A stretch of 39,287 bases of DNA, taken from the sequence record OQ921333.1. One strand, 5' to 3'. The notes beneath the pieces are model-generated. The model was not told where the DNA came from. It worked only from the letters and a program-made list of their open reading frames with translations, and did no database searches. Shown piece by piece: positions 295 through 33,004 of this stretch; the first letter of the stretch is position 1, and every line of letters begins with the position of its first letter. Source of the stretch: Escherichia phage vB_EcoP_PAS61. A program made the translations under genes and the position numbers.

Positions 295-1551
295 GTGCTT
301 ACCGATACAAAATTAAAAAACCTCAAGCCGCAGGACAAACTGTACAAGGTCTCCGATCGTGACGGGCTGTATGTAGCTGTGCTTACGTCAGGAACGGTCT
401 CGTTTCGCTATGACTACCGTATCAACGGTCGCCGCGAAACACTGGTAATCGGGCAGTATGGGCGTGACGGTATCAGTCTGGCAGAAGCGCGAGAAGAACT
501 GATTGCTGCAAAGAAGCTGCTTAAAGCAGGCCAGTCGCCGGCTGCGGCTAAACGTGACGGTATCAAAAAGATTCGTGGTGCCGAGACGTTTGCGGTACAT
601 ACCGACAGTTATATGAAACACGTCATCCTGGCTGACAGTACCCGCGCAATGAAGCAGTCGGTGATCGACCGTGACATACTTCCGGTTCTTGGCAACAAAA
701 TGATGGCTGAAATTACCACATCGATGGTTCGTGATTTGTGTGACCGGATTGTCGAACGCGGTGGCCGTGCAACAGCAGTACAGGCCAGGGAGATCATCAG
801 CAGCGTATACCGTCACGCCAATGACCGTGGTCATGGTTTGTTTAATCCTGCGGCTGACATTAAACCTTCGTCTATCGCCATATTTAAACCACGAGAGCGA
901 ACACTGACACCAGAAGAAATTGGCCTGTTCTTCCGCACGCTGGATGCCATTGGTGCTATGGGCACTATGAAAATGGCTTTAAAGCTGGTGCTTATCACTA
1001 TGGTTCGTAAAGGCGAATTCACTAATGCAACGTGGGACGAAATAGATTTTAAAAAATGGACATGGACAATTCCTTCAGACCGCATGAAGGGAAGCCGGGC
1101 GCACGTTATTTACCTGCCTAAACAGGCACAGGATATATTGGTTGGGTTGCAGATGTGCGCTGGTGGAAGTGAATATCTGGTTCCTGGTCGTTACAATTTC
1201 CGGAAGCCATTATCTAATGCCGCGCTGAACTCTCTGATCGACAGAACGGTGAAAATAATAAATGAAGATGGTGAGCATATTCAGGACTTCACCGTACACG
1301 ATATGCGCCGTACAGCAAGTACGTTGTTGCATGAGGCTGGTTATCCTTCAGACTGGATTGAAAAGGCTCTGGCACATGAGCAGAAAGGTGTGCGCGCCGT
1401 ATATAACAAAGCGGAATACGCCAGACAGCGCGCCTACATGTTGCAGCAGTGGGCCGATATGATTGATTCCTGGATTAACGGGGAGCATACGGATCTGATT
1501 CCGTTCTCCCCGTCGAAGTTTGAGAGGTGGATGGAAGACAGTAATAAATAA
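295..1551 (+). CDS. int: Tyrosine site-specific integrase (P4-like family), GTG start
   Basis: 418 aa ORF; N-terminal LTDTKLKNLKP...YKVSDRDGLYV motif typical of P4-type integrases; C-terminal HDMRRTASTLL...Y catalytic region; located at the prophage end. Confidence 0.9.
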   Translation: MLTDTKLKNLKPQDKLYKVSDRDGLYVAVLTSGTVSFRYDYRINGRRETLVIGQYGRDGISLAEAREELIAAKKLLKAGQSPAAAKRDGIKKIRGAETFAVHTDSYMKHVILADSTRAMKQSVIDRDILPVLGNKMMAEITTSMVRDLCDRIVERGGRATAVQAREIISSVYRHANDRGHGLFNPAADIKPSSIAIFKPRERTLTPEEIGLFFRTLDAIGAMGTMKMALKLVLITMVRKGEFTNATWDEIDFKKWTWTIPSDRMKGSRAHVIYLPKQAQDILVGLQMCAGGSEYLVPGRYNFRKPLSNAALNSLIDRTVKIINEDGEHIQDFTVHDMRRTASTLLHEAGYPSDWIEKALAHEQKGVRAVYNKAEYARQRAYMLQQWADMIDSWINGEHTDLIPFSPSKFERWMEDSNK

Positions 1552-2213: not shown

Positions 2214-2860
2214 GCTGCACGCTCCCGCCCCTGGTTGTCTATTGGTGACACCGGAGCATTGCTGAATGCATTTGTTAATCCGCCAATATCCAACGCGTAT
2301 CCAGGGTGTAGTTGCACTGCCGGGTCTTCGCACTGATTACCCCAAACATCGAAGCCATGAGACGTCTGGCGGGCGAACAGTTCAATGCGAGAAACATCGC
2401 CTAACAATTGCACAAGTTTTTCACGAACGACATCTGGTTTTCTTGAATGCTCAAGCCGCGGTGCGGTAAATGACTGAACGATCCATGCATTAATGCGTGG
2501 AGGTAGTTTTCCCTTTACTGCAAACAGGCAATCTTCACTATTGGCGCGAGTCATGTGTCCCATACCCATAACCAGTTTATCTGGTTGTCGACTACCACAT
2601 TTTATCCACGTGAAGCCCTTCATGGTCATCAGACGGAATCCCCAGGCTTCAACAACTTTTAGCGCTTCGAGTGGTTGTGTTGGCACCCACCACATGGCCA
2701 ACAGACAGTTTTCATCGGCCAAATCCCACACAGGAAGGCGGCAGATGTCCATCACACTCATAACCGGATATTTAAAACTGGCACCGCGATTACCATCTGC
2801 GGCTTTGTCCCGGTATACCCAGGGTGGATCTGCATAGATTAGTGTGTATTTCTTAGTCAT
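2210..2860 (-). CDS. MT-A70 family N6-adenine DNA methyltransferase
   Basis: 216 aa; DPPW motif (IYADPPWVY) characteristic of MT-A70/Dam-like N6-adenine methyltransferases. Confidence 0.8.
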
Positions 2861-3152
2861 AAACCACCCCGCAACATCCTATACCGCTATAGTCTCCACG
2901 GCGAAGGCCGTTACCTTTTGTGATACATTGGTCCCTGCGAACCGCGATCCTTGCACGCTCAACATCACCAGAAGCAACATCCATACACTGAAGCCAAAGG
3001 TGAGCGGCAATGCGGAACTGCCCTTTTTTCTCTCTTTCAATCGCGCGTTTTTCGATCTCTATCGCCGCAGGAGTAACGGCGACAATCTTTGACGGACTGC
3101 GCATTGAAACCTTATTCATGTGATATTTTTCAAGTCGGCTTAACTTTCTCAC
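2853..3152 (-). CDS. Hypothetical protein (early-left operon)
   Basis: 99 aa ORF overlapping the methyltransferase start by 8 nt; GTG start with GAGG upstream; no recognisable motif. Confidence 0.4.
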   Translation of the reverse strand: MRKLSRLEKYHMNKVSMRSPSKIVAVTPAAIEIEKRAIEREKKGQFRIAAHLWLQCMDVASGDVERARIAVRRDQCITKGNGLRRGDYSGIGCCGVVYD

Positions 3153-6602: not shown

Positions 6603-6833
6603 ATGAGCGATAACGGACATTTCGATTTCAAAAAGCACTGGCTTGCACTTACTCCGGATGAGCGTGAAGCCTTCGCACAGGAAGCCGGAACGACGAGTCA
6701 CTATATCCAGACTCACTTAACAGGTAAGCGCAAAATGCCAGGTAAAGTATTGATGAATGGGCTTTTTAAAGCCTGTAAATCAAGACAATGGTTGCGCTCA
6801 AAAGCAGAACTGGCATACTTCTTCTACTCATGA
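6603..6833 (+). CDS. Putative Cro-like early regulator (position-based call)
   Basis: 76 aa ORF transcribed divergently from the repressor immediately after the operator region; weak HTH-like segment. Confidence 0.4.
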   Translation: MSDNGHFDFKKHWLALTPDEREAFAQEAGTTSHYIQTHLTGKRKMPGKVLMNGLFKACKSRQWLRSKAELAYFFYS

Positions 6834-7199: not shown

Positions 7200-8015
7200 A
7201 TGAGCAGACATGCAACAGATTGGGCCTGGGAGACAGATCCAGGTAGCTCGTCATTAAAGCTCATACTGCTCTCGATGGCTGACAGAGCCGATGAATATAA
7301 CCTCTGCTACCCCAGCATAGAACGCCTCGTTAAAGACACCTGCTTGAATAAAAAAACCGTACAGGCCGGGCTTATATCGCTCATGAAAATGGGGCTTATT
7401 TCAGATACCGGAGAGAGAAAGGGAGCGACGAAAAGAGTGCGGGTTTTCTCTCTTAATATAACCAAAAAAGGGAACATTAAAGGCAACCTAGATGGGTGTA
7501 ATGAACCCGAAAACGGTAATGTTCCCAAAAACGGGAATATACCCAAAAACGGGATGTTGAATGATCCCAAAAACGGGATGTTGAATGATCCCAAAAACGG
7601 GATCCAGAACCAGTCATATAACCAGTCATTTAACCAAGAGAGGGAGAGCAGGACAAAAACCGGGGATTCTGTGCCTCATGACCCCGGCGCAAACAACGCC
7701 GTGATGAATAACTTTGTTCCTCCTGGTGGGCCAGGGCAATTAGGCAAATTTGTCATGCATGAACAATGGCAGCCATCAGATGACTTTCTTCGGAAAAGCT
7801 CATTGCAGGGAATCTACCTGGACAGTCTGCCAACGGCACAGGAACTTGCAGAGTTCAGAATTTACTGGATGGCTGAGGGTAAGGCATACCATCAGGCACA
7901 GTGGGAGCAGAAGCTGGCAAGGCGGCTGCAGATTAGCAGACAGAAGCAATCAACATTACCTGATAACAACGTTCCGCACTGGAACAGCCCTGAAGCATGG
8001 GAGGATTTCTTGTGA
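7200..8015 (+). CDS. Replication initiator (lambda O-like role) with N-terminal HTH domain; contains origin iterons
   Basis: 271 aa; N-terminal HTH-like region; internal PKNG repeat encoded by DNA iterons; directly coupled to a lambda P-like gene. Confidence 0.65.
   Translation: MSRHATDWAWETDPGSSSLKLILLSMADRADEYNLCYPSIERLVKDTCLNKKTVQAGLISLMKMGLISDTGERKGATKRVRVFSLNITKKGNIKGNLDGCNEPENGNVPKNGNIPKNGMLNDPKNGMLNDPKNGIQNQSYNQSFNQERESRTKTGDSVPHDPGANNAVMNNFVPPGGPGQLGKFVMHEQWQPSDDFLRKSSLQGIYLDSLPTAQELAEFRIYWMAEGKAYHQAQWEQKLARRLQISRQKQSTLPDNNVPHWNSPEAWEDFL
7506..7602. repeat. Putative origin of replication: five iterons CCC(A/G)AAAACGG(G/T)A spaced 18-24 bp, including a perfect 24-bp tandem repeat (7551-7574 / 7575-7598)
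   Basis: Direct repeats at 7506, 7524, 7542, 7566, 7590 read from sequence; location inside the initiator gene as in lambda ori. Confidence 0.7.
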
Positions 8016-12464: not shown

Positions 12465-13061
12465 ATGATGCCTGCTGAACCTAAAACCTATAAACGCAAA
12501 TCAACGCAATTTAAGCCACTAACAGCAATGCAGGAGGCTTATTGCCAGTCATACATCAAAACGCCTGAAAACCAGACTCAGGCAGCGATTAACGCAGGGT
12601 TCTCCCCAAATACAGCGGCAGTTAAAGCCAGTGTCATGATGCGCGATGAACGCATTCAAAAACGGATTGCCGAGTTGATGGAGGAGCGCAACAAACGAAT
12701 GCGCGTCAGTGCTGATTACGTTCTCATGCGCCTGGTGGAGATCGACCAGATGGACGTGATCGACATCCTCAACGACGATGGGAGCCTTAAACCAATCCGT
12801 GAGTGGCCGAAAATCTGGCGCACTACGCTTAGTGGCTTTGATCTGTCATCGACCATCATGAACATGAACGAGGATTCGATAGAGACAATCCTCAAAAAAA
12901 TTAAATGGCCTGACAAGGTGAAGAACCTTGAGCTGATTGGTAAGCATGTTGATGTCAACGCGTTCAAAGAACGTCTGGATGTTAATGTGAATGTGACAAT
13001 TGCTGATCGCATAGCAGCAGCCAGGAAGCGACTCAAAGAACGTCAGGATGGTAATCAGTGA
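12465..13061 (+). CDS. Terminase small subunit
   Basis: Position immediately upstream of and translationally coupled to terminase large subunit; basic N-terminal region; start moved to ATG after the terminator. Confidence 0.65.
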   Translation: MMPAEPKTYKRKSTQFKPLTAMQEAYCQSYIKTPENQTQAAINAGFSPNTAAVKASVMMRDERIQKRIAELMEERNKRMRVSADYVLMRLVEIDQMDVIDILNDDGSLKPIREWPKIWRTTLSGFDLSSTIMNMNEDSIETILKKIKWPDKVKNLELIGKHVDVNAFKERLDVNVNVTIADRIAAARKRLKERQDGNQ

Positions 13062-14533
13062 CAGATACAGCGTTATCTCCTGAAGAGCAGTTGATCGAGG
13101 ATATTGCAGGGTTCACTCACGATCCGCTTGGCTATGCCCTCTATGCGTTCCCGTGGGGGGAAGAGGGGACTGAACTGGCACATGCTACCGGCCCACGTCA
13201 GTGGCAGGCTGATGCGTTCCGAGAGATACGTGATCACCTGCAGAATCCAGAGACGCGCTATCAGCCGCTTATGCTGGCACGCGCTTCTGGTCACGGTATT
13301 GGTAAATCCGCATTCATCTCAATGCTGATCAACTGGGGCATGTCCACTTGCGAGGATTGTAAGGTCGTGGTGACCGCCAACACCGACAACCAGCTACGAA
13401 CGAAGACCTGGCCGGAAATTATCAAGTGGTCGAACCTTGCTATCACGAAAGACTGGTTTACCTGTACCGCTACCGCGATGTACAGCAATGATCCTGGGCA
13501 CGACAAGCGGTGGCGAGCTGACGCAATCCCCTGGTCTGAGCACAACACTGAGGCATTCGCCGGACTACACAACGAGCGCAAACGCATCATCGTGGTATTC
13601 GATGAAGCGTCGAACATTGCGGATCTGGTGTGGGAAGTTGCTGAGGGGGCGCTAACGGACGAAGACACTGAGATTATCTGGGTGGCGTTCGGAAACCCTA
13701 CACGTAACACCGGGCGTTTCCGCGAATGTTTCCGCAAATATAAACACCGCTGGAAAACTGCGCAGATTGACAGCCGGACGGTGGAAGGCACTAACAAACA
13801 GCAGTTGCAGAAATGGGTTGATGACTACGGGGAAGACAGCGACTTCGTTAAAATCCGTGTGCGCGGCATATTCCCTGATGCATCTGAATTGCAGTTTATC
13901 CCTACCGGTCTTACTGATGAGGCAATGAAACGGGTGGTAACCGCTGCGCAGGTTGCACATGCTCCGGTGATAATCGGCGTTGACCCGGCATACTCAGGCG
14001 TTGATGACGCGGTGATATACCTGCGGCAGGGGCTGCACAGTAAGGTGCTATGGACTGGTAACAAGACCACCGACGATCTGATTATGGCGAAGCGTATCGC
14101 TGACTTTGAAGACCAGTATCAGGCTGACGCGGTGTTCATCGACTTCGGTTACGGAACCGGTTTGAAGTCAATCGGTGATGGCTGGGGACGTACATGGCAA
14201 CTTGTTCCGTTCGGCGGTGCGTCCACTGACCCGCAGATGCTTAACAAGCGTGGGGAGATGTTCAACTCATGTAAGACATGGCTGAGGCTGGGCGGCATGC
14301 TGGATGACCAGGAAACTGCAGACGACCTGTCAGCGGCAGAGTACAAAGTTCGTGTGGACGGTAAAATCGTTATCGAACCGAAGGAAGATATCAAGGAGCG
14401 GCTTGGGCGTTCGCCGGGTAAAGGCGATGCGCTACTGCTGACGTTTGCTTTCCCTGTGTCGAAGCGTCTGCGAATTCCTGGGCAGCAGAACCAGCAAGGC
14501 AAGGCCATCACAGATTATGACCCGTATGCTTAA
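13058..14533 (+). CDS. Terminase large subunit
   Basis: 491 aa; Walker A-like ARASGHGIGKS; GTG start overlapping terS stop. Confidence 0.9.
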   Translation: MTDTALSPEEQLIEDIAGFTHDPLGYALYAFPWGEEGTELAHATGPRQWQADAFREIRDHLQNPETRYQPLMLARASGHGIGKSAFISMLINWGMSTCEDCKVVVTANTDNQLRTKTWPEIIKWSNLAITKDWFTCTATAMYSNDPGHDKRWRADAIPWSEHNTEAFAGLHNERKRIIVVFDEASNIADLVWEVAEGALTDEDTEIIWVAFGNPTRNTGRFRECFRKYKHRWKTAQIDSRTVEGTNKQQLQKWVDDYGEDSDFVKIRVRGIFPDASELQFIPTGLTDEAMKRVVTAAQVAHAPVIIGVDPAYSGVDDAVIYLRQGLHSKVLWTGNKTTDDLIMAKRIADFEDQYQADAVFIDFGYGTGLKSIGDGWGRTWQLVPFGGASTDPQMLNKRGEMFNSCKTWLRLGGMLDDQETADDLSAAEYKVRVDGKIVIEPKEDIKERLGRSPGKGDALLLTFAFPVSKRLRIPGQQNQQGKAITDYDPYA

Positions 14534-14584
14534 TCCGCTGGTGGGGATAATGTCGTTGATATCCTCTGATGAGGATAAAACAAA

Positions 14585-14610
14585 GCCAGCTCATCGGCTG
14601 GCTGTTTGTG
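14585..14610. terminator. Bidirectional terminator-like hairpin (GCCAGC-TCATCG-GCTGGC) with U-rich flanks, between terminase large subunit and the antisense moron
   Basis: Stem-loop read directly; adjacent to GTGACATGTCAC palindrome at 14608-14619. Confidence 0.45.
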
Positions 14611-14623
14611 ACATGTCACGGTG

Positions 14624-15046
14624 TTAGAAGGTTATTTTATCGAATGCGGCGTTGATTGCCTTGGCGTCCTGCTCAGCACCAACCACATCAAGTAAAGATC
14701 TTTTACTAAGCACTTCAGCCAGGCATTGTAACTTCATGTTGTATAAGTTTTCGCGCATGTAATCATCATCACTTTTTTCTTTGGCGTATACAGCGCGAGA
14801 AATATCAAACACATTGCCTTTTTCCATTTCAGTTTTCTGCGCTGAAATCCAGTCATGGCAAGTAACTCCTATTCCATGGTCATCGCTAAGCGTTAACCCG
14901 GCAAGTCGCTCACCTGGAATTGCTTCATAAAGCATTTCATTTCCTGCAAAAACACCATAAAAAATTGAGTCATCACCCTGAACAATGCGTACATATTTGC
15001 ACGGCCATTCATTTAGATATTTAGCTAGCATGTCGGCTGTTTTCAT
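14624..15046 (-). CDS. Moron gene of unknown function (antisense to the late operon)
   Basis: 140 aa ORF with balanced composition on the opposite strand between terminase and portal, downstream of a tRNA and an intrinsic terminator. Confidence 0.55.
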   Translation of the reverse strand: MKTADMLAKYLNEWPCKYVRIVQGDDSIFYGVFAGNEMLYEAIPGERLAGLTLSDDHGIGVTCHDWISAQKTEMEKGNVFDISRAVYAKEKSDDDYMRENLYNMKLQCLAEVLSKRSLLDVVGAEQDAKAINAAFDKITF

Positions 15047-15056
15047 GATCTCACTT

Positions 15057-15081
15057 TAAAAAAATGCCCGGCGAACCGGGC
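15057..15081 (-). terminator. Rho-independent terminator (GCCCGG-CGAA-CCGGGC followed by U7 on the minus strand) downstream of the tRNA
   Basis: Perfect stem with 7-nt U-run on minus strand. Confidence 0.55.
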
Positions 15082-15211
15082 TGTACTGGTTTACAGCATG
15101 AAGTCATCGCAATGGCGTCCTGCTGTAAAAAGGGCGGTGATAGTTCTTCAAGGGAAACCATCACCGCCAAGCCCCTGGAACTTCTGGCATCACGGTCCTT
15201 AGGCGTGATTC

Positions 15212-15288
15212 TGGCGTGGCATGCAGGATTCGAACCTGCGACCAACCGCTTAGAAGGCGGTTGCTCTGTCCGACTGAGCTAATGCCAC
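15212..15288 (-). tRNA. tRNA-Arg (anticodon UCU), phage-encoded
   Basis: Hand-folded cloverleaf: acceptor GTGGCAT/ATGCCAC, D-stem GCTC/GAGC, anticodon stem ACCGC/GCGGT with loop CTTCTAA, T-arm GCAGG-TTCGAAT-CCTGC, discriminator G and encoded CCA. Confidence 0.85.
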
Positions 15289-15610
15289 AACGCTGAGAGC
15301 ACTTAGCCTGTTAAGGCGCCACACTTTGTCGCGGCTCCATAAATGCTCTCATCGTTGTACCCTCGTCTCTTCCGAGGCGTCACACCGAATCGCCGGGATG
15401 GTGAATCCCCGTGCGCGGAATAAAACCGCTCGACTTGCACATTCCGGCTACCTGGTTCGTTTGCCCGAGCAAGGGAGGGTGCCCCTTAAACGTATCCAGA
15501 CCGCTATCGGCGCATGTGCCATACGCCGTACTGCTCAAAATAAAAGCTCACTCCACCTGTTTAATTTAACGACAAGCCAGTCAGGTTAGTAACCAGAATG
15601 AGCTCTTTAG

Positions 15611-15677
15611 TTACCTGAAAGGTAATAATTCACGCGTTAAATGTCAACCTTCTACGATAAATAAATCATATGTGGTT
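15611..15677. promoter_or_regulatory. Regulatory region upstream of the portal module: TTACCTGAAAGGTAA (15611-15625), TTGACA on minus strand (15647-15642), CATATGTGGTT (15667-15677)
   Basis: Motifs read directly. Confidence 0.4.
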
Positions 15678-15715
15678 AAATTGGTAATAATTTAATTGCG
15701 TACGGAGTCATTGAT

Positions 15716-15922
15716 ATGTGCATGGGTAGCTCACCATCAGTGCCTGCAACACCAGAAGTTCAGGCAGCACCACAGGAGCAGGATGCCGCCGTTGTTGATG
15801 CCCGCGACGAAGAAACACGTCGCCGTCGCGCTGCTGCTGGTCGTAGTTCTACGCTGCTTACCGGTTCTCAGGGCGACACATCAACCGCTAATACCAGCGG
15901 TAAAACGCTGCTTGGTCAGTAA
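15716..15922 (+). CDS. Small Ala/Gly/Thr-rich hypothetical protein upstream of portal
   Basis: 68 aa; RBS context GGAGTCATTGAtATG nearly identical to that of the portal gene. Confidence 0.45.
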   Translation: MCMGSSPSVPATPEVQAAPQEQDAAVVDARDEETRRRRAAAGRSSTLLTGSQGDTSTANTSGKTLLGQ

Positions 15923-15936
15923 CCGGAGTCATTGAA

Positions 15937-18144
15937 ATGGCGGAAACAACTAAAGAGCGATTGAACAAACAGTTCGCACAACTTGAAAGCGAGCGTCAGT
16001 CGTTCGAGCCGCACTGGCGCGAGTTGAGTGATTACATCAACCCGCGTGGTTCCCGCTTTCTGACTTCTGAGGTCAACCGTAACGATCGACGCAATACACG
16101 CATTATTGATTCGACCGGGACTATGGCGGCGCGCACTCTCGCCAGCGGCATGATGTCAGGCATCACAAGCCCTGCGCGTCCGTGGTTTCGCCTGGCTACG
16201 CCAGATCCTGAAATGATGGATTATGGTCCTGTTAAGTTGTGGCTCGAGGCGGTGCAGAACCGCATGAACGATATGTTCAATAAGTCGAATCTCTACCAGT
16301 CTCTTCCGCAGTTATACGGAAGCCTCGGCACATACAGCACTGGTGCAATGGCGGTGCTGGAGGATGACGAGGACATCATTCGCACAATGCCATTCCCGAT
16401 AGGCAGTTACTACCTGGCTAACTCACCTCGTGGCAGTGTGGACACCTGTTTTCGCAAGTTCTCTATGACTGTTCGTCAGCTTGTTCAGGAGTTCGGGCTA
16501 AATAACGTCAGCGAATCCGTAAAAAGCATGTGGGAAAGCGGCACCTACGAGAAGTGGATTGACGTGATGCATTCGGTTTACCCGAACATTGACCGCGATA
16601 CATTGAAGCTGGATAGCAAGAACAAGCCATTCAAATCGGTTTATTACGAGGTTGGTGGCGATAACGACAAGTTGTTGCGTGAGTCCGGATTCACAAGCCC
16701 TGCGCGTCCGTGGTTTCGCCTGGCTACGCCAGATCCTGAAATGATGGATTATGGTCCTGTTAAGTTGTGGCTCGAGGCGGTGCAGAACCGCATGAACGAT
16801 ATGTTCAATAAGTCGAATCTCTACCAGTCTCTTCCGCAGTTATACGGAAGCCTCGGCACATACAGCACTGGTGCAATGGCGGTGCTGGAGGATGACGAGG
16901 ACATCATTCGCACAATGCCATTCCCGATAGGCAGTTACTACCTGGCTAACTCACCTCGTGGCAGTGTGGACACCTGTTTTCGCAAGTTCTCTATGACTGT
17001 TCGTCAGCTTGTTCAGGAGTTCGGGCTAAATAACGTCAGCGAATCCGTAAAAAGCATGTGGGAAAGCGGCACCTACGAGAAGTGGATTGACGTGATGCAT
17101 TCGGTTTACCCGAACATTGACCGCGATACATTGAAGCTGGATAGCAAGAACAAGCCATTCAAATCGGTTTATTACGAGGTTGGTGGCGATAACGACAAGT
17201 TGTTGCGTGAGTCCGGATTTGATGAGTTTCCAATTATGGCTCCGCGCTGGGAAGTTAATGGCGAAGATGTTTATGGATCATCATGCCCGGGTATGCTGGC
17301 GCTTGGACCTGTTAAGGCATTGCAGCTTCTCCAGAAGCGCAAGTCGCAGTTGATTGATAAAGCCACCAATCCGCCGATGGTTGCTCCGACTTCCCTCAAG
17401 AATCAGCGCGCCTCCCTTCTTCCTGGCGACATCACGTATATCGATCAGATTACTGGTCAGGATGGTTTCAGGCCTGCTTATCTGGTTAACCCCAGTACAG
17501 CAGATCTGGTAGCAGACATTCAGGACACTCGTCAAATCATTAACAGCGCCTACTTTGTCGATCTGTTCATGATGTTGCAGAACATCAATACCCGCTCGAT
17601 GCCTGTTGAAGCGGTGATCGAAATGAAAGAAGAAAAACTTCTGATGTTGGGGCCGGTTCTGGAGCGTCTGAACGACGAATGTCTTAACCCTCTCATTGAC
17701 CGCGCTTTCTCGATGATGGTGCGTAAAAACATGCTGCCGCCACCGCCTGACGCGATGGAAGGTATGCCCCTGAAGGTCGAATACATTTCCGTCATGGCTC
17801 AGGCGCAGAAGTCTATCGGCCTGTCCAGTCTGGCGTCCACGGTTAACTTCATTGGTCAACTTGCGCAAGCGAAACCAGAAGCTCTCGACAAACTCAACGT
17901 TGATCAGGCGATCGATGCATTCGCTGATATGTCCGGAGTGTCTCCAACCGTCATTGTTCCGCAGGAACAGGTTGAGCAGGCTCGCCAGCAACGGGCACAG
18001 CAACAACAGCAGCAACAAATGATGGCGATGGGGATGGCGGCGGCACAGGGTGCCAAGACGCTAAGCGAAGCTAAAACTTCGGATCCGAGTGTTTTGTCAG
18101 CTATGGCGAATGCAGTTAGTGGTCAGGGTGGGCAATCACAATGA
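15937..18144 (+). CDS. Portal (head-to-tail connector) protein, T7 gp8-like, carrying an internal in-frame 176-codon tandem duplication
   Basis: 735 aa; Gln-rich C-terminus recalls T7 gp8; position after terminase; internal duplicated segment TSPARPWF...LLRESGF. Confidence 0.8.
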   Translation: MAETTKERLNKQFAQLESERQSFEPHWRELSDYINPRGSRFLTSEVNRNDRRNTRIIDSTGTMAARTLASGMMSGITSPARPWFRLATPDPEMMDYGPVKLWLEAVQNRMNDMFNKSNLYQSLPQLYGSLGTYSTGAMAVLEDDEDIIRTMPFPIGSYYLANSPRGSVDTCFRKFSMTVRQLVQEFGLNNVSESVKSMWESGTYEKWIDVMHSVYPNIDRDTLKLDSKNKPFKSVYYEVGGDNDKLLRESGFTSPARPWFRLATPDPEMMDYGPVKLWLEAVQNRMNDMFNKSNLYQSLPQLYGSLGTYSTGAMAVLEDDEDIIRTMPFPIGSYYLANSPRGSVDTCFRKFSMTVRQLVQEFGLNNVSESVKSMWESGTYEKWIDVMHSVYPNIDRDTLKLDSKNKPFKSVYYEVGGDNDKLLRESGFDEFPIMAPRWEVNGEDVYGSSCPGMLALGPVKALQLLQKRKSQLIDKATNPPMVAPTSLKNQRASLLPGDITYIDQITGQDGFRPAYLVNPSTADLVADIQDTRQIINSAYFVDLFMMLQNINTRSMPVEAVIEMKEEKLLMLGPVLERLNDECLNPLIDRAFSMMVRKNMLPPPPDAMEGMPLKVEYISVMAQAQKSIGLSSLASTVNFIGQLAQAKPEALDKLNVDQAIDAFADMSGVSPTVIVPQEQVEQARQQRAQQQQQQQMMAMGMAAAQGAKTLSEAKTSDPSVLSAMANAVSGQGGQSQ
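16163..17218 (+). repeat. Perfect tandem direct duplication, 2 x 528 bp (16163-16690 and 16691-17218), inside the portal gene
   Basis: Nucleotide-level identity read across both copies; the ORF-track translation repeats the same 176 aa. Confidence 0.9.
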
Positions 18145-21950: not shown

Positions 21951-24421
21951 TGGCTATCAGTTGGATCCAGCCCAGCTTTGCTGGTGGTGAGATTGGACCG
22001 TCGTTGTACGGACGTATCGACATGGCGAAGTACCAGGTGGCATTGCGCAAGTGCGATAACTTTATCGTGCGGCAGTATGGCGGCGTTGAGAATCGACCTG
22101 GTACGCGTTTTGTCGGTGCCGCCAAATACCCAAATCGGAAATGCCGCCTGATCCCGTTCCAGTTCTCGACGGTTCAGACCTATGCTCTGGAGTTCGGACA
22201 CCAGTACATGCGCGTTATCAAAGATGGTGCGTTGGTGCTGAACAGCAGCAATGTTATTTATGAAATTGCCACGCCATATACTGAAGCCGATCTGTTCCGA
22301 ATTAAATTTACGCAAAGCGCCGACGTGCTTACGCTGGTTCACCCGGCATACCCGCCGAAAGAGTTGCGCCGCTATGCGCATGACAACTGGCAACTGGTTG
22401 ATGTGGTAACGAAGAACGGGCCATTTGAAGATATCAATATTGACGAGTCAGTGACGGTTTATGCCAGCGCCAGCACCGGGACAATTACGTTAACGGCAAG
22501 CGCCTCTATTTTTGGCGCGGAGCAGGTAGGCAAATTGTTCTATCTGGAACAGCCTGCAGTGGATTCTGTGCCGGTATGGGAAACCAGTAAGAGTACGTCG
22601 ATTGGCGATATTCGCCGTGCAGACAGTAACTACTATCGCGCCGTTACAGCAGGAAAAACAGGCACTTTGCGCCCTTCGCATACAGAAGGCACATCATGGG
22701 ATGGCTGGGGGGGCTCCGGTGATGATGATACTGGCATTGAGTGGGAGTATCTGCACAGTGGTTTTGGCATTGCCCGTATAACTGCTGTAAATGGCACTAC
22801 TGCAACTGCTGAGGTGATTTCCTATATCCCTTCGCAGGTCGTTGGCGAGGATAATGCCAGCTATAAATGGGCTAAATATGCCTGGAACAGTGTTAATGGT
22901 TATCCTGGCACTGTTGTTTATTATCAACAGCGTCTTTACTTCGCCGCATCGACTGCGTTCCCTCAGACTATCTGGGCCAGCCGTACTGGGGATTATAAGG
23001 ATTTTGGCAAAAGCAATCCTACGCAGGATGACGACAGAATTATCTACACCTATGCCGGGCGTCAGGTTAATGAGATCCGTCACCTGATTGATGTTGGTTC
23101 GCTGGTGGCACTGACTTCCGGAGGTGAGTACGTCATCACCGGCGACCAGAACAAAGTGTTAACCCCATCATCATTTGCATTCAGCTCTCAGGGATCAAAT
23201 GGCTCGAGCAATGTCCCACCAATTGCCGTGGCGAATATTGCTCTGTTCGTCCAGGAGAAAGGCAGTGTTGTCCGTGATCTGGCCTACTCATTCGATGTTG
23301 ACGGCTATCAGGGGAACGACCTGACCATCCTTGCCAATCATCTTTTTCAGAAGCACAGCATTGTTGACTGGTGCTTCTCTATTGTCCCTTACTCCAGCGC
23401 CTTCTGCATTCGTGATGACGGTAAATTACTGGTGATGACCTATTTGCGTGATCAGCAGGTTTTTGCATGGGCACCACAATCCAGTACCGGAAAATATGAA
23501 AGCACATGCAGTATCAGCGAAAAAAATGAAGATGCGGTGTATTTCGTCGTTAACCGAACCGTTAACGGGCAAACAGTGAGATACATCGAGCGACTGTCCA
23601 GCCGTTTATTTACCAGCGATGAAGATGCTTTCTTTGTTGATTCTGGCCTTAGCTATGATGGAAGAAATACGTCTGACAGAACGATGACCATCACTGGTGG
23701 TTCTGGCGAATGGGATTACCGCGCGGAATATACAATCAGTATTTCTGGTGGTGCGTACTTCACCAGTAGTGATGTCGGTGCGCAACTACAGTTCCCTTAT
23801 ATCGGAACTGATCCTGGTACTGGCGATGAAGTGTCAAAAGAATTACGTTGCGACATTATTTCTATAACCAGCAACACCGCTGTAGTGGTTCGTGCTAACA
23901 GGAACGTCCCGCCATCCCTCAGGAATGTGGCCACCACGAACTGGCAGATGGCGCGCCGGACATTTGGAGGCCTGTCTCATCTTGAAGGCCAGACCGTAAA
24001 CATTCTCTCTGATGCGAACGTGGAACCACAGAAAGTGGTTTCCGGAGGTGCCGTCACGCTGGAATCACCGGGGGCTGTTGTGCACATCGGCCTGCCAATA
24101 ACTGCTGAATTCGAAACACTGGATATCAACATTAACGGACAGGAAACGCTGCTGGACAAAAAACAGGTGATCCCGTCCGTTACTCTGGTTGTGAATGCCA
24201 GTCGCGGCATCTGGGCGACTACGCCCGGCGGTAAATGGTACGAATATCCACAGCGTGAATTCGAGTTCTACGATGATCCTGTTGATGACGCTACCGGAAA
24301 AGTAGAAGTGAAACTGGACAGTAACTGGGGCAAAAACGGACGTGTAAGAATCCGTCAGCTTGACCCGTTGCCGCTGTCTGTTCTTGCCGTTATTCCTCGC
24401 CTTACTGTTGGGGGGGTCTGA
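21950..24421 (+). CDS. Tail tubular protein B-like (T7 gp12-like nozzle)
   Basis: 823 aa; size and gene order after gp11-like protein. Confidence 0.55.
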   Translation: MAISWIQPSFAGGEIGPSLYGRIDMAKYQVALRKCDNFIVRQYGGVENRPGTRFVGAAKYPNRKCRLIPFQFSTVQTYALEFGHQYMRVIKDGALVLNSSNVIYEIATPYTEADLFRIKFTQSADVLTLVHPAYPPKELRRYAHDNWQLVDVVTKNGPFEDINIDESVTVYASASTGTITLTASASIFGAEQVGKLFYLEQPAVDSVPVWETSKSTSIGDIRRADSNYYRAVTAGKTGTLRPSHTEGTSWDGWGGSGDDDTGIEWEYLHSGFGIARITAVNGTTATAEVISYIPSQVVGEDNASYKWAKYAWNSVNGYPGTVVYYQQRLYFAASTAFPQTIWASRTGDYKDFGKSNPTQDDDRIIYTYAGRQVNEIRHLIDVGSLVALTSGGEYVITGDQNKVLTPSSFAFSSQGSNGSSNVPPIAVANIALFVQEKGSVVRDLAYSFDVDGYQGNDLTILANHLFQKHSIVDWCFSIVPYSSAFCIRDDGKLLVMTYLRDQQVFAWAPQSSTGKYESTCSISEKNEDAVYFVVNRTVNGQTVRYIERLSSRLFTSDEDAFFVDSGLSYDGRNTSDRTMTITGGSGEWDYRAEYTISISGGAYFTSSDVGAQLQFPYIGTDPGTGDEVSKELRCDIISITSNTAVVVRANRNVPPSLRNVATTNWQMARRTFGGLSHLEGQTVNILSDANVEPQKVVSGGAVTLESPGAVVHIGLPITAEFETLDININGQETLLDKKQVIPSVTLVVNASRGIWATTPGGKWYEYPQREFEFYDDPVDDATGKVEVKLDSNWGKNGRVRIRQLDPLPLSVLAVIPRLTVGGV

Positions 24422-24885
24422 TGATCGATGTTCGAATTATTCCCGCTACCGAAGAGCATCTTCAGATGATTTTGCCGGATGTTCGTCAGGCTGATATTGA
24501 CGAACTGTATGCGGTATCGCTGATGACTACCGAAGATGCGCTGCGTGTTGGTCTGCGCACTGCGACTATGGCCTGGTCAGGGTTCGCGAACGGAGAACTG
24601 GTAACCATGTTTGGTGTATCTCCGGCGTCAATGATCGGTGGCAATGGTACACCCTGGCTGGTCGGAACCAGCCGTATTGAAAAATATCAGAAGACATTTC
24701 TTCGCCACTGCCGCCCTGTATTGCAGCAGATGCTGGCAGTTTATCCGCGCCTGGAAAACTACGTCGACGAGCGAAACCATGTTGCCAAAGCATGGCTGCA
24801 CTGGCTTGGATTCAGGCTTGAAGAAGCCGCGCCTTATGGTGCTCTTGGTCTTAATTTCCACAGATTTCACATGGAGAGAAAATAA
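24421..24885 (+). CDS. Internal virion protein (small)
   Basis: 154 aa; position between tail tube and large internal proteins; ATGA overlap. Confidence 0.45.
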   Translation: MIDVRIIPATEEHLQMILPDVRQADIDELYAVSLMTTEDALRVGLRTATMAWSGFANGELVTMFGVSPASMIGGNGTPWLVGTSRIEKYQKTFLRHCRPVLQQMLAVYPRLENYVDERNHVAKAWLHWLGFRLEEAAPYGALGLNFHRFHMERK

Positions 24886-25430
24886 TGTGCGATCCGGTTA
24901 TTGCTGGTGGCGCAATGCTCGCCATGAGTGGCATTCAGGCATACACCCAGTACCAACAGGGAAAGTATGCCTCGAAGGTTGCAGAAGCGAACGCAGATAT
25001 AGCCACTGCTCAGGCAAATGATGCAATAAACAGAGGTAACGCTGAAGCTGAGCAACGGCGCAGAGAGACCCGACAGCGGCTTGGTACACAGGCGGCGACA
25101 ATGGGGGCGACCGGCGCTGATTTATCTACCGGTAACGCGCTGGATATATTTGGCGACACTGCCCAGTTTGGCGCTCTTGATTCGCTAACGACGGTGAATA
25201 ACGCGCAACGCGAGGCTTACGGTTATCAGGTTCAGGCTGCCAACTATAAAGCAGAAGCCAGTTCAGCCCGTAAACAGGGGAATGTGGGAGCAGCAACAAC
25301 ATTGCTCACTGCGCCTCTGAAGGCATACGGTGCGTACCAGATGTTTGGTGGGACGTGGAGTCCGTTTACTCAAAGCACTCCTGCGCCAATCGGGGCAGCA
25401 GCAGGAACCAGATTACCCGGAGGATTATAA
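24885..25430 (+). CDS. Internal virion protein (Ala/Gly/Gln-rich)
   Basis: 181 aa; translationally coupled both sides. Confidence 0.45.
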
Positions 25431-28237
25431 TGCCAGTCGTACCAACAGTATCCGGACGTCAGGTTGAGAGCCGTGGAGTTCAGTCAGCAGGCTTGCAGAC
25501 GTTTTCTCAGCCAGGTATTGGTGATGCTTTTGTTCGGGCAGGGGCAGAGGCTATTGATGTTTTTGGTCAGGCAAAACAGCGTGCCAATATCGCTCTGGCT
25601 CAGGAGGCATCTCTTAACCTCAGTCAGATAAGCAGCGATCTGCTGAATAACCCTGAAACAGGTTTGCTTAACCTGAAAGGGAAAAATGCTATTGGAAAAG
25701 GTCAGGAGTATACGCAGCAGTTTGATGCTCAGGTCGAACAACTGGCTATGTCGCTGCCGGATGAACAGGCTCGTAATGCTTTCATGCAGCAGGCGCAGCA
25801 GCAGCGCATTCAGTTCACTACGCAGGCCGGGCGGCACGAGATAGGGCAAATCAATGCCTACGAAGAAGGACAGTTTCAGGCGACGCTGCTGAACAATGGT
25901 AAAAATGCCGCAGCATTGTATGGCGACAACGCCGCATACGTATTGGCTAATAAGCAAACTTTCCAGCAAATTGAGGATTACGGCATTGCACATGGCTGGA
26001 GCGACGAGCAAATCCAGGCCAAGAAAATCGAGTTTAAAGAGAAGGTTGCTGATGCTGCATTGTCCCAGTGGTCGGCAAACAATGCGATCTCATTTATCCA
26101 AAGTAATGGCGAGTTAAGCGATACTGCTGCTGGATCAAAGCGGGCTATTGTTAATCCTTATGGCGGAGAGCCAAAGTCCACAAAGGGAATGGTTGTTCAA
26201 GGAAATATTAATCTCTTCAACCGCCCATCTGTCAAAAATGAAGATGGGACTATCAGTACCGTTCGAACAATTTCTATAGGCACAGAAGCTGGAGAAGTTC
26301 TCATTCCCACCGTCAGTGATGATGGAAAATTGCTTTCCGATGACGAAGCTATTGCTCTGTATGAAAAAACTGGAAAACACCTTGGAATATTCGATAACCC
26401 TGAGAATGCGACCGCCTATGCTGAGAAACTTCACGAACAGCAGGATCAGTATTACGTAAAAGGTGGTGCTCGCGGTATCCGTAATAACAACCCTGGAAAT
26501 CTCGAATACAGCAAAACTAATCCGTGGGTAGGCCAGACCGGTGATGATGGTCGATTTGCTAAATTCGAAACACCTGAGCACGGGATTCGTGCATTAGGGC
26601 GTAACCTGATGTCGTATCAGCGGCAGGGTATCGATACCGTCAGCGAGATAATTAATCGCTGGGCACCGCCTACTGATAAAAATGACACTATGTCGTATAT
26701 CAAAGCAGTGTGCGAACAACTTGGCGTTTCTGCTGATGAGCCTCTCGATGCATCAAATCCTGATACCCTGAAGGCGCTTTGTGCAGCCATTATCCATCAT
26801 GAGAACGGTAGTCAGCCATACAGTGATCAGCAGTTAACTGCTGGTGTCAGTGCAGCACTTGGTTTATCAACAATTCCAACCAACACCAAACGCTATACCG
26901 GTAATGCAGCATTCGATGCGGCATCTCCTGAGGCTCAGGCAAGTTTTATGCGACAGGCGGATCAACTGCGTCGGCAGCAGCAGGCTGAATATAAAACGAT
27001 AATTGACAGCAAGGTTCGCGATGCGACGGCTGCGTATATGCGTGGCGTTGAATTTCCTAACCCACCTGGTGAGGCTGATTTTATTGCAGCTTATGGTGTC
27101 AGAGAAGGAAACCTGCGATATACCGAGTTTAAGAATACGCAGATCGCCGGACAGTATATAGGCTCTTTCCGCAACATGCCGACAAGCAGCATTACAGCAT
27201 ATGTTGAGCAATTACGCCCGGATACTGGTGAGACAGGGGAGGGTTATGCGGCACGAGCCGCTCTTTATGACAACGTTGTGTCGGCTGCAAGTCAGGTGAT
27301 AAAGCAGCGACAGGCTGATCCTGTACAGTTCTCTCTTGCCGCCGGACAGGCAAAGCCTATCGACATGAGCAATAAGGATAACTTTGGACAGAGCGTTGCC
27401 TTGCGTGCTGCTCAGGTCAGTGACCTTGCTAAGTCATATGGCACTCCACTGACGTTCTTTTCCAAAGACGAGGCCAATCAGATCGGTGTTTTCTTTCGTG
27501 ATGCGCCCGTTTCCCAACAGGCAGCATATCTCGATACCATCAGGCAGAGCACTGGTGGTGGGCAGGTGTATATGTCAGCACTACAGCAGATCAGTGCCAA
27601 CGCTCCATCTGCTGCCGTTGCCGGGATACTGATGGATAAGCCAGGTGGTATTTTGGCAGAAAAAAACTGGTTTAATCCGGATGTTTCCGTGTCTCCAGAA
27701 ACCGCTGCGCAGACAATTCTTGCTGGCGCGGCGGCTCGTAAAGGTACTGATGACGCGAAAGGTATTCCGATGCCTAAAGATGCTGATCTTCGCCTTGAGT
27801 TTTCTGACATGGTGAAGGATGCATTTGCTGGTGATGCTCAGGGGGCATCAATGGCATACGAGATCGCAAAGGACTATTACGCTGGTGTGATGGCGAAAAA
27901 AGGCGTGGTATCAGGCGAAATTGACAATGATATCTGGAAACAGGCTGTTAACGTAGCTACAGGTGGCGTGCATGACTATAACGGAATGGGGAATGTTCTT
28001 TTGCCGTGGGGAATGTCTGCAGAGCAATTCGATAAGCAGGTTAATCAGGCTTGGAATGAACAAGTTGTTGGCACAGGGATAAAAACACCGCCTGGTCAGT
28101 ATGGTTTGCAAAGTTACGGCGATAGTCAGTACCTGGTGAAACTTGGTACTGGTTATCTGCTAAAAGATGATGGTTCTCCCGTTGTTCTTGATCTGACACA
28201 GAAGCGTCAGAGATTCTCCGGAGATATTCCGCAATGA
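25430..28237 (+). CDS. Large internal virion/ejection protein, possibly with a cell-wall-degrading domain
   Basis: 935 aa; central conserved-looking block [15 protein letters not shown]...[14 protein letters not shown]; start set at ATG overlapping upstream stop with GGAGGA RBS. Confidence 0.6.
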
Positions 28238-30036
28238 GTTACTTTGGCCTTAATCCAGTAAACCAGAATCAGCAGCTTGACGAAGCAGCATCAAATCCAG
28301 TTGGCTTTAACAGCGATGTTGGTTTTTTCGACAATGCTGTAGGAGCGGCATTGTCTGGTTTGTACTCCGGGCTGGTGGCAAAGCCAGATCAGTTTCTATG
28401 GGCAGGGATGGATAAAATCGTATCCCCGATTGCTCAGCTTGTTAACGAAAACACCTCGCTCAATGACACTTCAGTTTCATACATTGCTGAGCAGAGAAAA
28501 CTAGCAGAGCAGCAGGTTAAGCGGCTGACGCCTGATGCCGCGACAACCGGAACCGCCGGGCAGGTCCTTTATGGGTTGTTCGATATGGGCGGGCAGGCTG
28601 TTGTCGGTACAACGCTCGGTGGTCCTGTCGGAGGTGCTGCGGCGGTAACTTCTCTACAGGGTTTTTCTGAGTTTGAACGGTTGACAGCACAGGGTGTTGA
28701 TTTCAGGACGGCGCAGGAAGCGGGATTAGTGCAGGGTATTACTGCTGGTGCCGGAACACTGATCCCTATGAGCCTCGGGTTACGTGCTGGTGGTGCGCTG
28801 GCGGAAGGTGTGGCGGCTCAGCTTGCGCGGACGGGTGAAAGTTCAGTGCGACGCGCCGCAGCAACAGCAGTACGTGCAACGCCAGATATTGCCTATGCCG
28901 CAGGTACAAATATTGCGTTCGGTATGGCACAGCGTGGGCTTACTGCAAAAACGCTTCGTGATGGTGGCTATAGCGAAATGGCTAACCAGTATGATGTGTT
29001 GGATCGACAGGCAATTGCTATTGATGCTGTTCTTGGGGTGGCGTTTGGTGGTGTCGGCAGATTTATTAACTCTCGCGGCGAGTCTACAAGCGCACCAAAT
29101 TTTTCACCAGTTGATATTGATGCTGCACTGGCGGCGAATGCCGCTCATCATGCTGAAATTGATATTGCTCCCGGCGTTCCGATCAACGTGCTTTCGCGTA
29201 ATTCGCACATTCAGGCTCTGCGAAAAGCCATGTCTGATGTTAGCCAGGGGAGACCTGTAGACGTTGCCAGCATTGTTGAGTCTGCATCTTTCAGTGAAAT
29301 TCCTGGGCGCAAGAGTCTGCTGTCTCAGGCAGTTAATGAGGCTCTGTCATCTGTAGATGATGGAGTAACGGCGCGCGCTATAGAAAATCGGTTGCTTGAA
29401 GAACAGGCCGCGCAGCTTTTGTCGCGTGGCGATAGACAGGTTTACCAGTCTGAAATCGCTAATAGCCAACGAATTATTGAAAATCTCACTGAACAGCGCG
29501 CACAAATTCTTGCAGAAGAGCCAACCGGTAGCGGTAAGGCTTTATCTCGTGCTCGATCAGATAAACAGGCCAGACTTCGCGATATTGACCAACGAATCCG
29601 GCAGGCACAAGAACGCCTGGAATTTTCTCGTAACGCGTTGGCGCCGCACGAGCCTGGAGGTCAGTTTTTTGAAGCTCGAGCAGAACTGGCACGACGACAG
29701 CAGGCAGAAAGTGAACTTAATGCTCAGGCTGTTTCATTCTATAAAACAGCAGAGGTCAGGACGCCAGACGAAGTAGCTCCTTTTGAGCCCGGTAAGATAT
29801 TGCAACAGACAGAACAAAAAATGATGGCAGATCCGGCAGGAGATATTGATCTGCGTATAGCTGAAGACTCGCTGCTTGAATCTCCGGACATGATAATCAC
29901 CGTGCTGGATGATGATGGTAATCCACAATCGCGCAGTGCGCGTGAAGTACTGGATGAAGCGAACAGGGAAAGTGAGCAGGCAATACAGGATTCCAGCCTG
30001 TTTGATGTCGCTGTGGCGTGTTTCTTGAGAGGTTAA
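28234..30036 (+). CDS. Internal virion/ejection protein
   Basis: 600 aa; Ala/Gly-rich with predicted hydrophobic stretches; gene order. Confidence 0.55.
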
Positions 30037-30041
30037 ATTAA

Positions 30042-32516: not shown

Positions 32517-32525
32517 GGATGAGAA

Positions 32526-32666
32526 ATGATTGCTTTTATTCTTGTTGTGTTTGCGCTTGTTGCACTTGGCGTTATGAACCGTAAATGTATCATTGACGAT
32601 GGCGAATTTGCTGTTGCAGTTATTTTGATATTATCTGGTGTAGCAGGGTACATAGGCTTGTCATAA
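32526..32666 (+). CDS. Small hydrophobic membrane peptide (46 aa)
   Basis: Hand translation MIAFILVVFALVALGVMNRKCIIDDGEFAVAVILILSGVAGYIGLS; AAGGA RBS 6 nt upstream; below ORF-track cutoff. Confidence 0.4.
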   Translation: MIAFILVVFALVALGVMNRKCIIDDGEFAVAVILILSGVAGYIGLS

Positions 32667-32686
32667 CGTGAGCGTGACATGTCACA

Positions 32687-32712
32687 GGCCGCTTTCGCGG
32701 CCTTTAAATTTA
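32687..32712 (+). terminator. Rho-independent terminator (GGCCGC-TTTC-GCGGCC + U-rich tail) ending the injection operon
   Basis: Perfect 6-bp GC stem plus U-run; GTGACATGTCAC palindrome directly upstream. Confidence 0.6.
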
Positions 32713-32967: not shown

Positions 32968-33004
32968 CTTATCTTCTCCATGCAATAACTGTATATTTAT
33001 ACAG

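Follow-up and report, generated by a model that had tools for sequence, protein, structure and literature searches.

Why does a temperate phage carry a tRNA gene antisense to its terminase and portal genes, and what is that gene a part of? We addressed this question for the tRNA-Arg(UCU) gene of Escherichia phage vB_EcoP_PAS61 (sequence record OQ921333.1), analysing the whole stretch of 39,287 nucleotides (nt), hereafter the window. An earlier note on this DNA had described a 77-nt cloverleaf with anticodon UCU and an encoded CCA on the minus strand, lying between terminase and portal. ARAGORN and the Rfam tRNA model agree with this description of the tRNA, and the positions of the open reading frames (ORFs) agree with its placement. 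What had been missed is that the tRNA is not free-standing: it is the cargo of a putatively repressor-controlled unit that begins with a conserved, structured leader RNA of about 300 nt. The 5' domain of this leader is an apparently undescribed conserved structured RNA, identified here by sequence and covariation. Escherichia phages phiV10, TL-2011b, vB_EcoP_ZX5 and O157 typing phages 9 and 10, which belong to the genus Uetakevirus (epsilon15-like podophages), match the region at 98% identity, and the window is a phiV10/epsilon15-like temperate podophage that integrates at guaA.

ARAGORN, named as a check in the earlier note, calls exactly one tRNA in the window, a tRNA-Arg with anticodon tct (Table 1). 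The Rfam tRNA model aligns over its full length to 15215..15288 (model positions 1-71 of 71; 73.3 bits for a gathering score of 29; E = 2.4e-14), with standard pairs throughout the stems and no non-standard pair flagged. The RNA, GUGGCAUUAGCUCAGUCGGACAGAGCAACCGCCUUCUAAGCGGUUGGUCGCAGGUUCGAAUCCUGCAUGCCACGCCA, ends in ...AUGCCAC-G-CCA, hence the CCA is encoded, and its anticodon at 15252-15254 is held in a 7-nt loop, CUUCUAA, with U33 and A37, the same as that of K-12 argU. E. coli arginyl-tRNA synthetase (ArgRS) recognizes A20, C35, U36 and A/G73 as identity elements, and these are present here as a D loop AGUCGGACA with A20, the anticodon UCU and a discriminator G. We read the feature as a functional argU-type elongator tRNA-Arg(UCU) gene whose expression and charging are predicted; taken jointly with the explanation of the whole unit given below, our confidence in this reading lies slightly on the favourable side of even. 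The promoter-like site, the encoded CCA and the terminators that follow would all fit an expressed gene.

The tRNA gene is already known, being annotated and published in relatives. A tRNA-Arg stands at the same position in the GenBank or RefSeq records of O157 typing phages 9 and 10, phiv142-3, SPN9TCW, SPC32H/N and Klebsiella phage ST512-KPC3phi13.3, and at the matching position in many E. coli chromosomes; the paper on vB_EcoP_ZX5 reports 'One tRNA' as annotated (PMC9782041). At 95% identity or more, 505 of 20,395 E. coli records have a copy, as do about 9% of the complete E. coli records; strain 118UI carries a 100% identical copy annotated as tRNA-Arg. Identity is 98.7-100% among the E. 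coli copies and 72-74 of 77 positions in Salmonella and Klebsiella phages, where the changes produce G·U pairs or an A73 discriminator. Since the leader beside the tRNA is only 69-71% identical in those same Salmonella and Klebsiella phages, the tRNA is under purifying selection as a tRNA.

On the K-12 chromosome the tRNA is most similar to argU, located between fimZ and intD, with 63 of 77 positions identical. Both tRNAs have the anticodon loop CUUCUAA, the T arm, the length of 77 nt, A20, G73 and the encoded CCA in common. The acceptor pairs U2-A71, G4-C69 and A6-U67 of the phage tRNA are C-G in argU, a fully compensated set of changes, and the anticodon stem has two pairs exchanged for different Watson-Crick pairs. 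The earlier note was right that the acceptor stem differs from argU (GUGGCAU here, GCGCCCU in K-12). Its view of the gene as a tRNA of a phage lineage, not an att fragment, also stands: the gene is complete, lies 15 kb from attP and the integrase, and carries compensated stem changes. The genetic settings differ as well, as the phage tRNA follows a structured leader of about 300 nt and a phage operator, whereas argU is chromosomal, has a host promoter and sits beside the DLP12 integrase.

The 5' domain of the leader occurs once in the window, read 15530->15361 (nhmmer E = 5.9e-35). Pair statistics were taken from an alignment of 120 distinct leader sequences (A2), in which RNAalifold finds 27 consensus pairs, 13 of them with double-sided compensatory changes. 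The pair cells are paired in 98.3% of cases, compared with 91.1 +/- 0.2% in shuffles and 25-57% when the partners are slid, and 221 compensatory cells are observed where 53.5 are expected; on each of five measures, 0 of 500 shuffles reached the observed value. The alignment contains 427 G·U cells and only 16 A·C cells, indicating that the structure exists on the tRNA strand only, that is, as RNA.

The resulting fold comprises eight helical segments and a pseudoknot. In the latter, the P3b loop (C/A)ACC pairs with a downstream GGU(G/U): the pair is C-G in 116 sequences, A-U in four and unpaired in none. Accordingly spelled, GGUU is found in 4 of 4 AACC sequences, from at least three lineages, and in 0 of 116 CACC sequences, with mEp460 as a fifth case. 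Helix P4 covaries in divergent loci around a GAAGAG(A/U) loop (CCUCG/CGAGG, CCAGG/CCUGG, CCGG/CCGG, CCCCG/CGGGG), and the helix that closes the 3' domain covaries too, for example to GAUGACUU/GAGUCAUC and GAGAGUA/UACUCUC. A second pseudoknot candidate, between the P1 loop GCACAU and AUGUGC in J2/3, has six complementary bases; its rare variants are uncompensated and we do not claim it.

None of the Rfam 15 covariance models, those for C4, DicF, tmRNA, RNase P, riboswitches and EAR among them, matches the leader at gathering score anywhere in the window, and none reaches E <=10 in 15289-15640; the mEp460 copy of the leader gives chance-level Rfam hits only. A full-text search of a literature library for the leader motifs found no paper.

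Several other identities for the leader were rejected. A protein-coding gene (plus-strand ORF 15326..15589, 87 amino acids (aa); gp36/gp37 in mEp460) has no frame open in all copies, the domain lengths spread evenly modulo 3 (44/40/31), the conservation comes in contiguous invariant blocks, which also counts against coding, as does the asymmetry between G·U and A·C cells, and the only PHROG hit on the leader ORF is weak (E = 0.0014). These opposite-strand ORFs over the leader are called hypothetical proteins in some records and are probably spurious. A site acting at the DNA level, such as pac or an origin, is ruled out by the strand-specific G·U pairs. Likenesses to RNase P RNA, T-box and RfaH ops/JUMPStart elements (CGGGUAGCC, a UGGC loop, GGGUAGCC compared with GGCGGTAG) were considered, gave no model hit and were dropped. 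Similarly, a boxA-like reading of the 3' closing strand UGCUCUUU was abandoned, as this strand is base-paired and covaries to the unrelated GAGUCAUC and UACUCUC.

We then ask how far the leader is tied to the tRNA. An 18-nt motif of the leader retrieved at least 120 IMG/VR loci, and a tRNA lies downstream in 30 of the 124 loci that carry the motif. Because so few leader loci have a tRNA, the function of the leader must be independent of it. A second motif was found in 24 bacterial contigs from at least 12 Enterobacteriaceae genera, one of the 24 being a chance hit. When the context of 139 loci is considered, 81 have the order terL, leader, gp3-portal. The other 58 have, immediately before the leader and on the same strand, a CI-type repressor gene (helix-turn-helix plus Peptidase_S24), with cro and CII genes diverging on the far side and same-strand ORFs following the leader. 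The lambdoid phage mEp460 presents this arrangement as two operators and a promoter, the 5' domain (L156:2501-2676) and a 3' domain near-identical to that of the window, followed by a cloverleaf-like element GUGGUGA...UCACCAC, a T1-like terminator and the first early-left gene.

BLAST finds the 5' domain in P1, P7, D6, SJ46, RCS47, Stx2c-converting phages, the cdtI phage and 1720a-02. In P1 (NC_005856.1) it spans 71023-71191. It begins 14 nt past the trnI CCA and extends into the start of ban, and the P1 record has no annotated feature there. Among complete E. coli genomes, 1,824 of 5,426 contain the domain, in 2,449 places of which 547 are on plasmids, and no annotated feature is found among the matches listed. 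Sorted by cargo, the distinct loci comprise 26 with tRNA-Arg(UCU), about 46 with a GUGGUGAA element and 35 without a 3' domain. In tRNA-less loci the 3' domain is followed by the GUGGUGAA...UCACCAC element (mEp460, L156:2738-2876; Tyrion, L007 ~1990-2200), a cloverleaf-like four-way junction with an acceptor-like stem whose fold is only marginally better than that of shuffles (z = -1.84) and which the Rfam tRNA model does not match. This element may be a tRNA-like processing signal.

One locus, IMGVR_UViG_2791355294_000005, has 5' domains in tandem (oriented positions 6653-6805 and 7458-7612), about 800 nt apart. The first terminator-like sites cluster 300-450 nt downstream of the leader; a census of terminators in this position (80 and 71 of 111 loci for the two strands) does not discriminate between strands and is given no weight.

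An alignment of seven relatives (Uetakevirus) on the tRNA strand places the leader in a unit of fixed order: the gp3 start, an invariant control region, the leader, block-conserved over about 300 nt, the tRNA, terminator T1, an invariant 27-nt block, terminator T2 and a variable ORF. Its elements are collected in Table 1. The divergent loci likewise have TTGACA-N17-TAxxxT directly upstream of the leader RNA. A consensus scanner missed the leftward promoter because the -10 hexamer matches the consensus at only 3 of 6 positions.

The inverted repeat TTACC-N5-GGTAA is present eight times in the window, each time in an intergenic control region; about 0.04 occurrences would be expected by chance. 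The pairs 5730/5792 and 8835/8897 are each 62 bp apart, which is the spacing of 15611 and the degenerate site at 15673, and one copy stands between a repressor-like and a cro-like ORF. The epsilon15 record labels the homologous sites as binding the repressor and has three of them next to the repressor gene. From these sites we infer that the leftward promoter is repressor-controlled, and the eight copies suggest that a single repressor acts directly on many scattered operons, like C1 in P1.

Table 1 Elements of the leftward unit, its flanking genes and related sites (positions in the window unless another phage is named)
Feature	Position	Strand	Remarks
Second, degenerate operator-like site (TTACCAATTTAACCA, minus strand)	15673..15687		62 bp from O1, beside gp3 start; block invariant in 7 phages
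-35 hexamer TTGACA	15642..15647	-	Invariant in 7 relatives; 17-nt spacer to -10
-10 hexamer TACCTT, predicted start near 15612	15619..15624	-	Sequence reading; T, A and final T match consensus
Operator O1, TTACC-N5-GGTAA	15611..15625		Overlaps -10 and +1 of the leftward promoter
TTACC-N5-GGTAA copies	5730, 5792, 6504, 8835, 8897, 12433, 15611, 33044		
P0, optional long hairpin at transcript 5' end	15542..15608	-	Minimum free energy fold; in some relatives, not in SPN9TCW or several genome loci
Leader 5' domain, ~170 nt, helices P1-P4 and pseudoknot	15361..15530	-	nhmmer, covariation
Leader 3' domain, variable insert closed by helix GAGAGCAUU/AGUGCUCUC	15289..15360	-	Helix ends 6 nt before tRNA +1
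tRNA-Arg(UCU), 77 nt, CCA encoded	15212..15288	-	ARAGORN, Rfam tRNA model
T1, 14-bp hairpin then CUUUUU	15127..15168	-	43 nt after tRNA 3' end; stem 15168->15133
Invariant 27-nt block UUUACAGCAGGACGCCAUUGCGAUGAC between T1 and T2	15103..15129	-	Unchanged in 7/7 Uetakevirus sequences including epsilon15
T2, GCCCGG-UUCG-CCGGGC then AUUUUUUU	15058..15081	-	Stem 15081->15066
Variable accessory ORF, 140 aa, phrog_4846	14624..15046	-	Downstream of T1 and T2
T3, terminator-like hairpin	14577..14603	-	After accessory ORF; ends leftward unit before terL
Large terminase (terL)	13058..14533	+	Flanks tRNA unit on one side
gp3/portal	15716.., 15937..	+	Flank tRNA unit on other side
13-nt direct repeats TTCCCTTGATGCT	SPN9TCW (L004) 2732-2744 and 3126-3138; epsilon15 (L002) 2672-2684		

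Downstream of the tRNA, the stem of T1 covaries between phages (GAUGG/CUAUC, GGCAG/CUGACC, ACCAG/CUGGU) and has a homologue in mEp460. The terminator that the earlier note had assigned to the tRNA as its own (15057-15081) does exist and corresponds to T2; it is, however, the second of two, T1 being closer. The U-run of T2 ends at 15058, 11 nt before the start of the downstream ORF (ATG 15046).

Homology with phiV10 stops at about 15076, and the content of the accessory slot varies: epsilon15 and O157 typing phage 9 have a Phage_gp49_66 protein, and Klebsiella phage ST512-KPC3phi13.3 has a gene (L005:1897-2418) with a Tad2-like anti-Thoeris (Thoeris anti-defence 2) domain. The presence of this predicted Tad2-like gene suggests that the leftward unit is an early accessory or counter-defence locus. 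PADLOC gave no convincing match on the cargo ORFs, only weak coiled-coil-type hits in one relative.

Our preferred explanation, which, taken as a whole, we hold with moderate confidence, is that a short leftward unit has been inserted between terL and gp3/portal and carries the tRNA as its cargo. The unit would consist of a sigma-70 promoter (TTGACA-17-TACCTT) under operator control, the leader, the tRNA, T1 and T2, the accessory ORF and T3. It would be silent in the lysogen; upon infection or induction the operator would be freed and transcription would start from about 15612. RNase P would then cleave at the tRNA +1, parting the leader from the tRNA, and the 3' trailer would be trimmed to the encoded CCA. 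ArgRS would charge the product, as expected from the retention of A20, C35, U36 and G73, and the additional tRNA would boost AGA decoding for the tailspike, the internal virion proteins and the O-antigen acyltransferase.

What the leader itself does is constrained by its cargo. Because it works with either a tRNA or ORFs downstream, it cannot be a translational regulator, which would leave transcription, RNA processing or stability, or a function in trans. In the window, as in the lambdoid loci L046, L143 and mEp460, it lies on the sense strand, directly after a repressor-controlled early promoter and ahead of terminators. This is the position of nutL/putL in lambdoid phages, which favours cis-acting antitermination. 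By this analogy the leader may be a cis-acting antitermination element that carries the polymerase through T1 and T2 into the accessory ORF, a role to which we give roughly one chance in three. It is about equally possible that it is a stable RNA, freed by the tRNA-processing enzymes and acting in trans, and a platform for processing or stability in cis is an alternative to antitermination.

In broader terms, we regard as evenly balanced the joint proposition that the 5' domain represents a new phage non-coding RNA family, a modular leader moving between Uetakevirus, lambdoid (Stx2c, cdtI) and P1-like phage-plasmids for which the tRNA is one interchangeable cargo. As parts of this proposition, the leader would always be found on the sense strand of repressor-controlled early operons, and it would either reprogram RNA polymerase, as a new structural class of factor-independent antiterminator, or be excised by tRNA-processing enzymes as a stable RNA directed against a conserved host target.

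As for the tRNA, we assessed the relevance of AGA decoding by counting codons in ORFs of 100 aa or more. Per 1000 codons, the window contains 6.46 AGA and 4.22 AGG. Among the other carriers of the tRNA, AGA stands at 6.94 per 1000 in the E. coli 22-245 prophage and 6.00 in SPN9TCW; it is 4.22 in the tRNA-less epsilon15 and 1.03 in the host genes flanking the prophage (1,947 codons only), a comparison of three genomes with one in which the genomes are not independent. AGA is thus about 6 times commoner in the phage than in the flanking host genes. The low-GC tailspike has 13 AGA codons and two internal virion genes have 6 and 8, while the O-antigen acyltransferase (Acyl_transf_3 plus SGNH) has 11 AGA and 8 AGG among its 23 Arg codons. 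AGA is absent from the terminase, the portal and the major capsid genes. The earlier note had suggested that a phage copy could serve late translation and had named an AGA comparison with the host as a check; AGA is indeed commoner than in the flanking host genes and concentrated in late tail genes. Rare-codon supply by the phage tRNA is plausible, and codon supply in lytic growth is its best-supported role, which fits the codon data although the evidence is thin.

Several observations weigh against this explanation. The -10 of the leftward promoter is weak and was not called by the consensus scan; the tRNA accompanies the leader in only 26-30 of about 125 loci; and the codon comparison has the narrow base just given. 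The most abundant structural proteins use no AGA, so that any benefit would fall on moderately expressed genes, and the gene richest in AGA/AGG, that of the acyltransferase, serves lysogenic conversion and is expressed at a time when repression of the unit is expected. Finally, epsilon15 and Tyrion are without the tRNA, and epsilon15 is viable, indicating that the tRNA is dispensable. Relative to SPN9TCW, epsilon15 has an exact deletion of 394 nt between two 13-nt direct repeats that SPN9TCW has kept (Table 1), which takes away the tRNA together with half of T1 and the greater part of the leader. SPN9TCW with the tRNA and epsilon15 without it offer a clean natural contrast between codon supply and a role in counter-defence.

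The latter role is the strongest of the alternatives, though we consider it unlikely. Here the tRNA would be a nuclease-resistant stand-in for the host tRNA-Arg(UCU), its altered stems evading a nuclease of the host or of a competitor while its loops keep decoding and charging. All but four of its differences from argU do lie in stem pairs, with the functional loops kept, and the unit is an early accessory slot that holds the Tad2-like gene in the Klebsiella relative. There are precedents: in temperate phage 21 a single tRNA-Thr protects against P2 OLD, with resistance mapping to anticodon-stem changes (PMC12445682), and phage tRNAs have been proposed in general to evade tRNA-targeting defences (PMC10264068). 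However, the eLife proposal rests on loop mutations, whereas the anticodon loop here is the same as that of the host. Compensated stem changes would arise equally by neutral drift of a functional tRNA, and the cargo ORFs have no convincing PADLOC match. Moreover, no E. coli nuclease that defends against phages is known to be specific for tRNA-Arg(UCU); colicin D, which cleaves tRNA-Arg, is a bacteriocin.

Somewhat less probable again is that the tRNA serves mainly as an RNase P site which determines where the leader ends (3') or where the downstream RNA begins (5'), with decoding secondary. The 3' closing helix ends close before the tRNA +1, and the sequence at the junction, CGUU|GUGG, stays the same with each kind of cargo. 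About 46 distinct loci have the cloverleaf-like GUGGUGAA element in place of the tRNA, the P1 leader begins just after the CCA of trnI, and the P1 c4 and P4 CI RNAs are matured by RNase P. Such a handle would have no need for the UCU loop, A20, G73, the T loop or the encoded CCA, yet all are conserved across three host genera. The marginal fold and lack of an Rfam tRNA match of the GUGGUGAA element also count against it, as do the 35 distinct loci with neither 3' domain nor tRNA. The processing and decoding roles are not mutually exclusive.

A contribution to lysogenic conversion, in which a prophage-expressed tRNA would raise AGA decoding for rare-codon genes of the host or for the prophage acyltransferase, is improbable. 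The many E. coli records that carry the tRNA and the codon content of the acyltransferase, which is expressed in lysogens, speak for it, as does the enhanced fitness that prophage phiv142-3 confers on avian pathogenic E. coli, according to work cited in PMC9782041. On the other hand, an operator over the -10 and +1 of the promoter predicts repression in the lysogen, and tests of growth, stress, adhesion and virulence revealed no phenotype of the ZX5 lysogen (PMC9782041).

The remaining alternative concerns integration. The attP core ATTGAGTGGGAATGATT lies at 88-104, near the window start, adjoining the tyrosine integrase (295..1551). The core has been demonstrated as attP in phiV10, epsilon15 and ZX5, with the 3' end of guaA as the target (PMC9782041), and in E. 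coli 22-245 a related prophage sits immediately after guaA. Although many phages integrate into tRNA genes and argU abuts the DLP12 integrase, a relic of integration, either an att-site tRNA fragment or, as the earlier note had suggested, a substitute for a host tRNA gene broken by integration, is refuted by an attP 15 kb away beside the integrase and a target that is guaA and not a tRNA gene (PMC9782041; E. coli 22-245 prophage), leaving a full-length tRNA inside the morphogenesis region that is unrelated to integration.

Two further observations concern the flanking genes. On the plus strand, no terminator-like site was found after terL in 14400-16000, so that late rightward transcription may run antisense through the accessory ORF, the tRNA and the leader; the annotators of epsilon15 placed an RNase III site in the gap after terL. 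The portal gene (15937..18144) contains a 528-nt in-frame tandem duplication (16155-16682 and 16683-17210), which gives an ORF of 735 aa compared with 559 aa in relatives, with residues ~74-249 present twice. This could be an assembly artefact, the mark of a defective prophage or a tolerated duplication.

Taken alone, the tRNA is one more rare-codon tRNA of a temperate phage, already annotated and published for the group. The interesting and apparently undescribed part is the leader RNA, which lies outside the coordinates of the earlier note. The leader module is apparently unannotated, although P1, Shiga-toxin and cdt phages and roughly one in three complete E. coli genomes contain it. Should the module prove to be a new cis-acting antiterminator or a processed regulatory RNA, the expression of early accessory and anti-defence genes from behind terminators in these phages would have an explanation, and some of the best-studied phage genomes would gain an RNA gene.

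The unit can finally be set beside known systems. Within Uetakevirus, the tRNA-Arg of the phiV10-like and SPN1S-like genomes is the same gene at the same position, and nothing material differs. The ileZ-argN-argO cluster of Stx-converting lambdoid phages resembles it in belonging to temperate enterobacterial phages, in serving rare codons and in including a tRNA-Arg(UCU). Its tRNA-Arg genes, however, are of another lineage, with 51 of 77 and 58 of 77 positions identical to the phage tRNA, and they are clustered in the late region upstream of stx, without this leader, unlike the tRNA of the window. The ban operon of P1 is, like the unit described here, an early operon under repressor control (C1) that strings together tRNAs and other RNA elements: it comprises a dicF-like region, trnA, trnT and trnI, with the 5' domain between trnI and ban. 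There the 5' domain follows a tRNA, lacks the 3' domain and is operon-internal, whereas in the window it precedes the tRNA.

The putL and putR sites of HK022, cis-acting and factor-independent antiterminators, are likewise located on the sense strand after a repressor-controlled early promoter and are followed by terminators and genes. The put RNAs are two adjacent stem-loops of about 70 nt; the 5' domain has about 170 nt, four helices and a pseudoknot, is operon-internal in P1, and any put-like activity is predicted. A homology of the leader with put was rejected, there being no kinship in sequence or architecture: the nhmmer search of the HK022 immunity region (24000-37000) gave E = 0.63, compared with 1.1e-31 for the P1 positive control.

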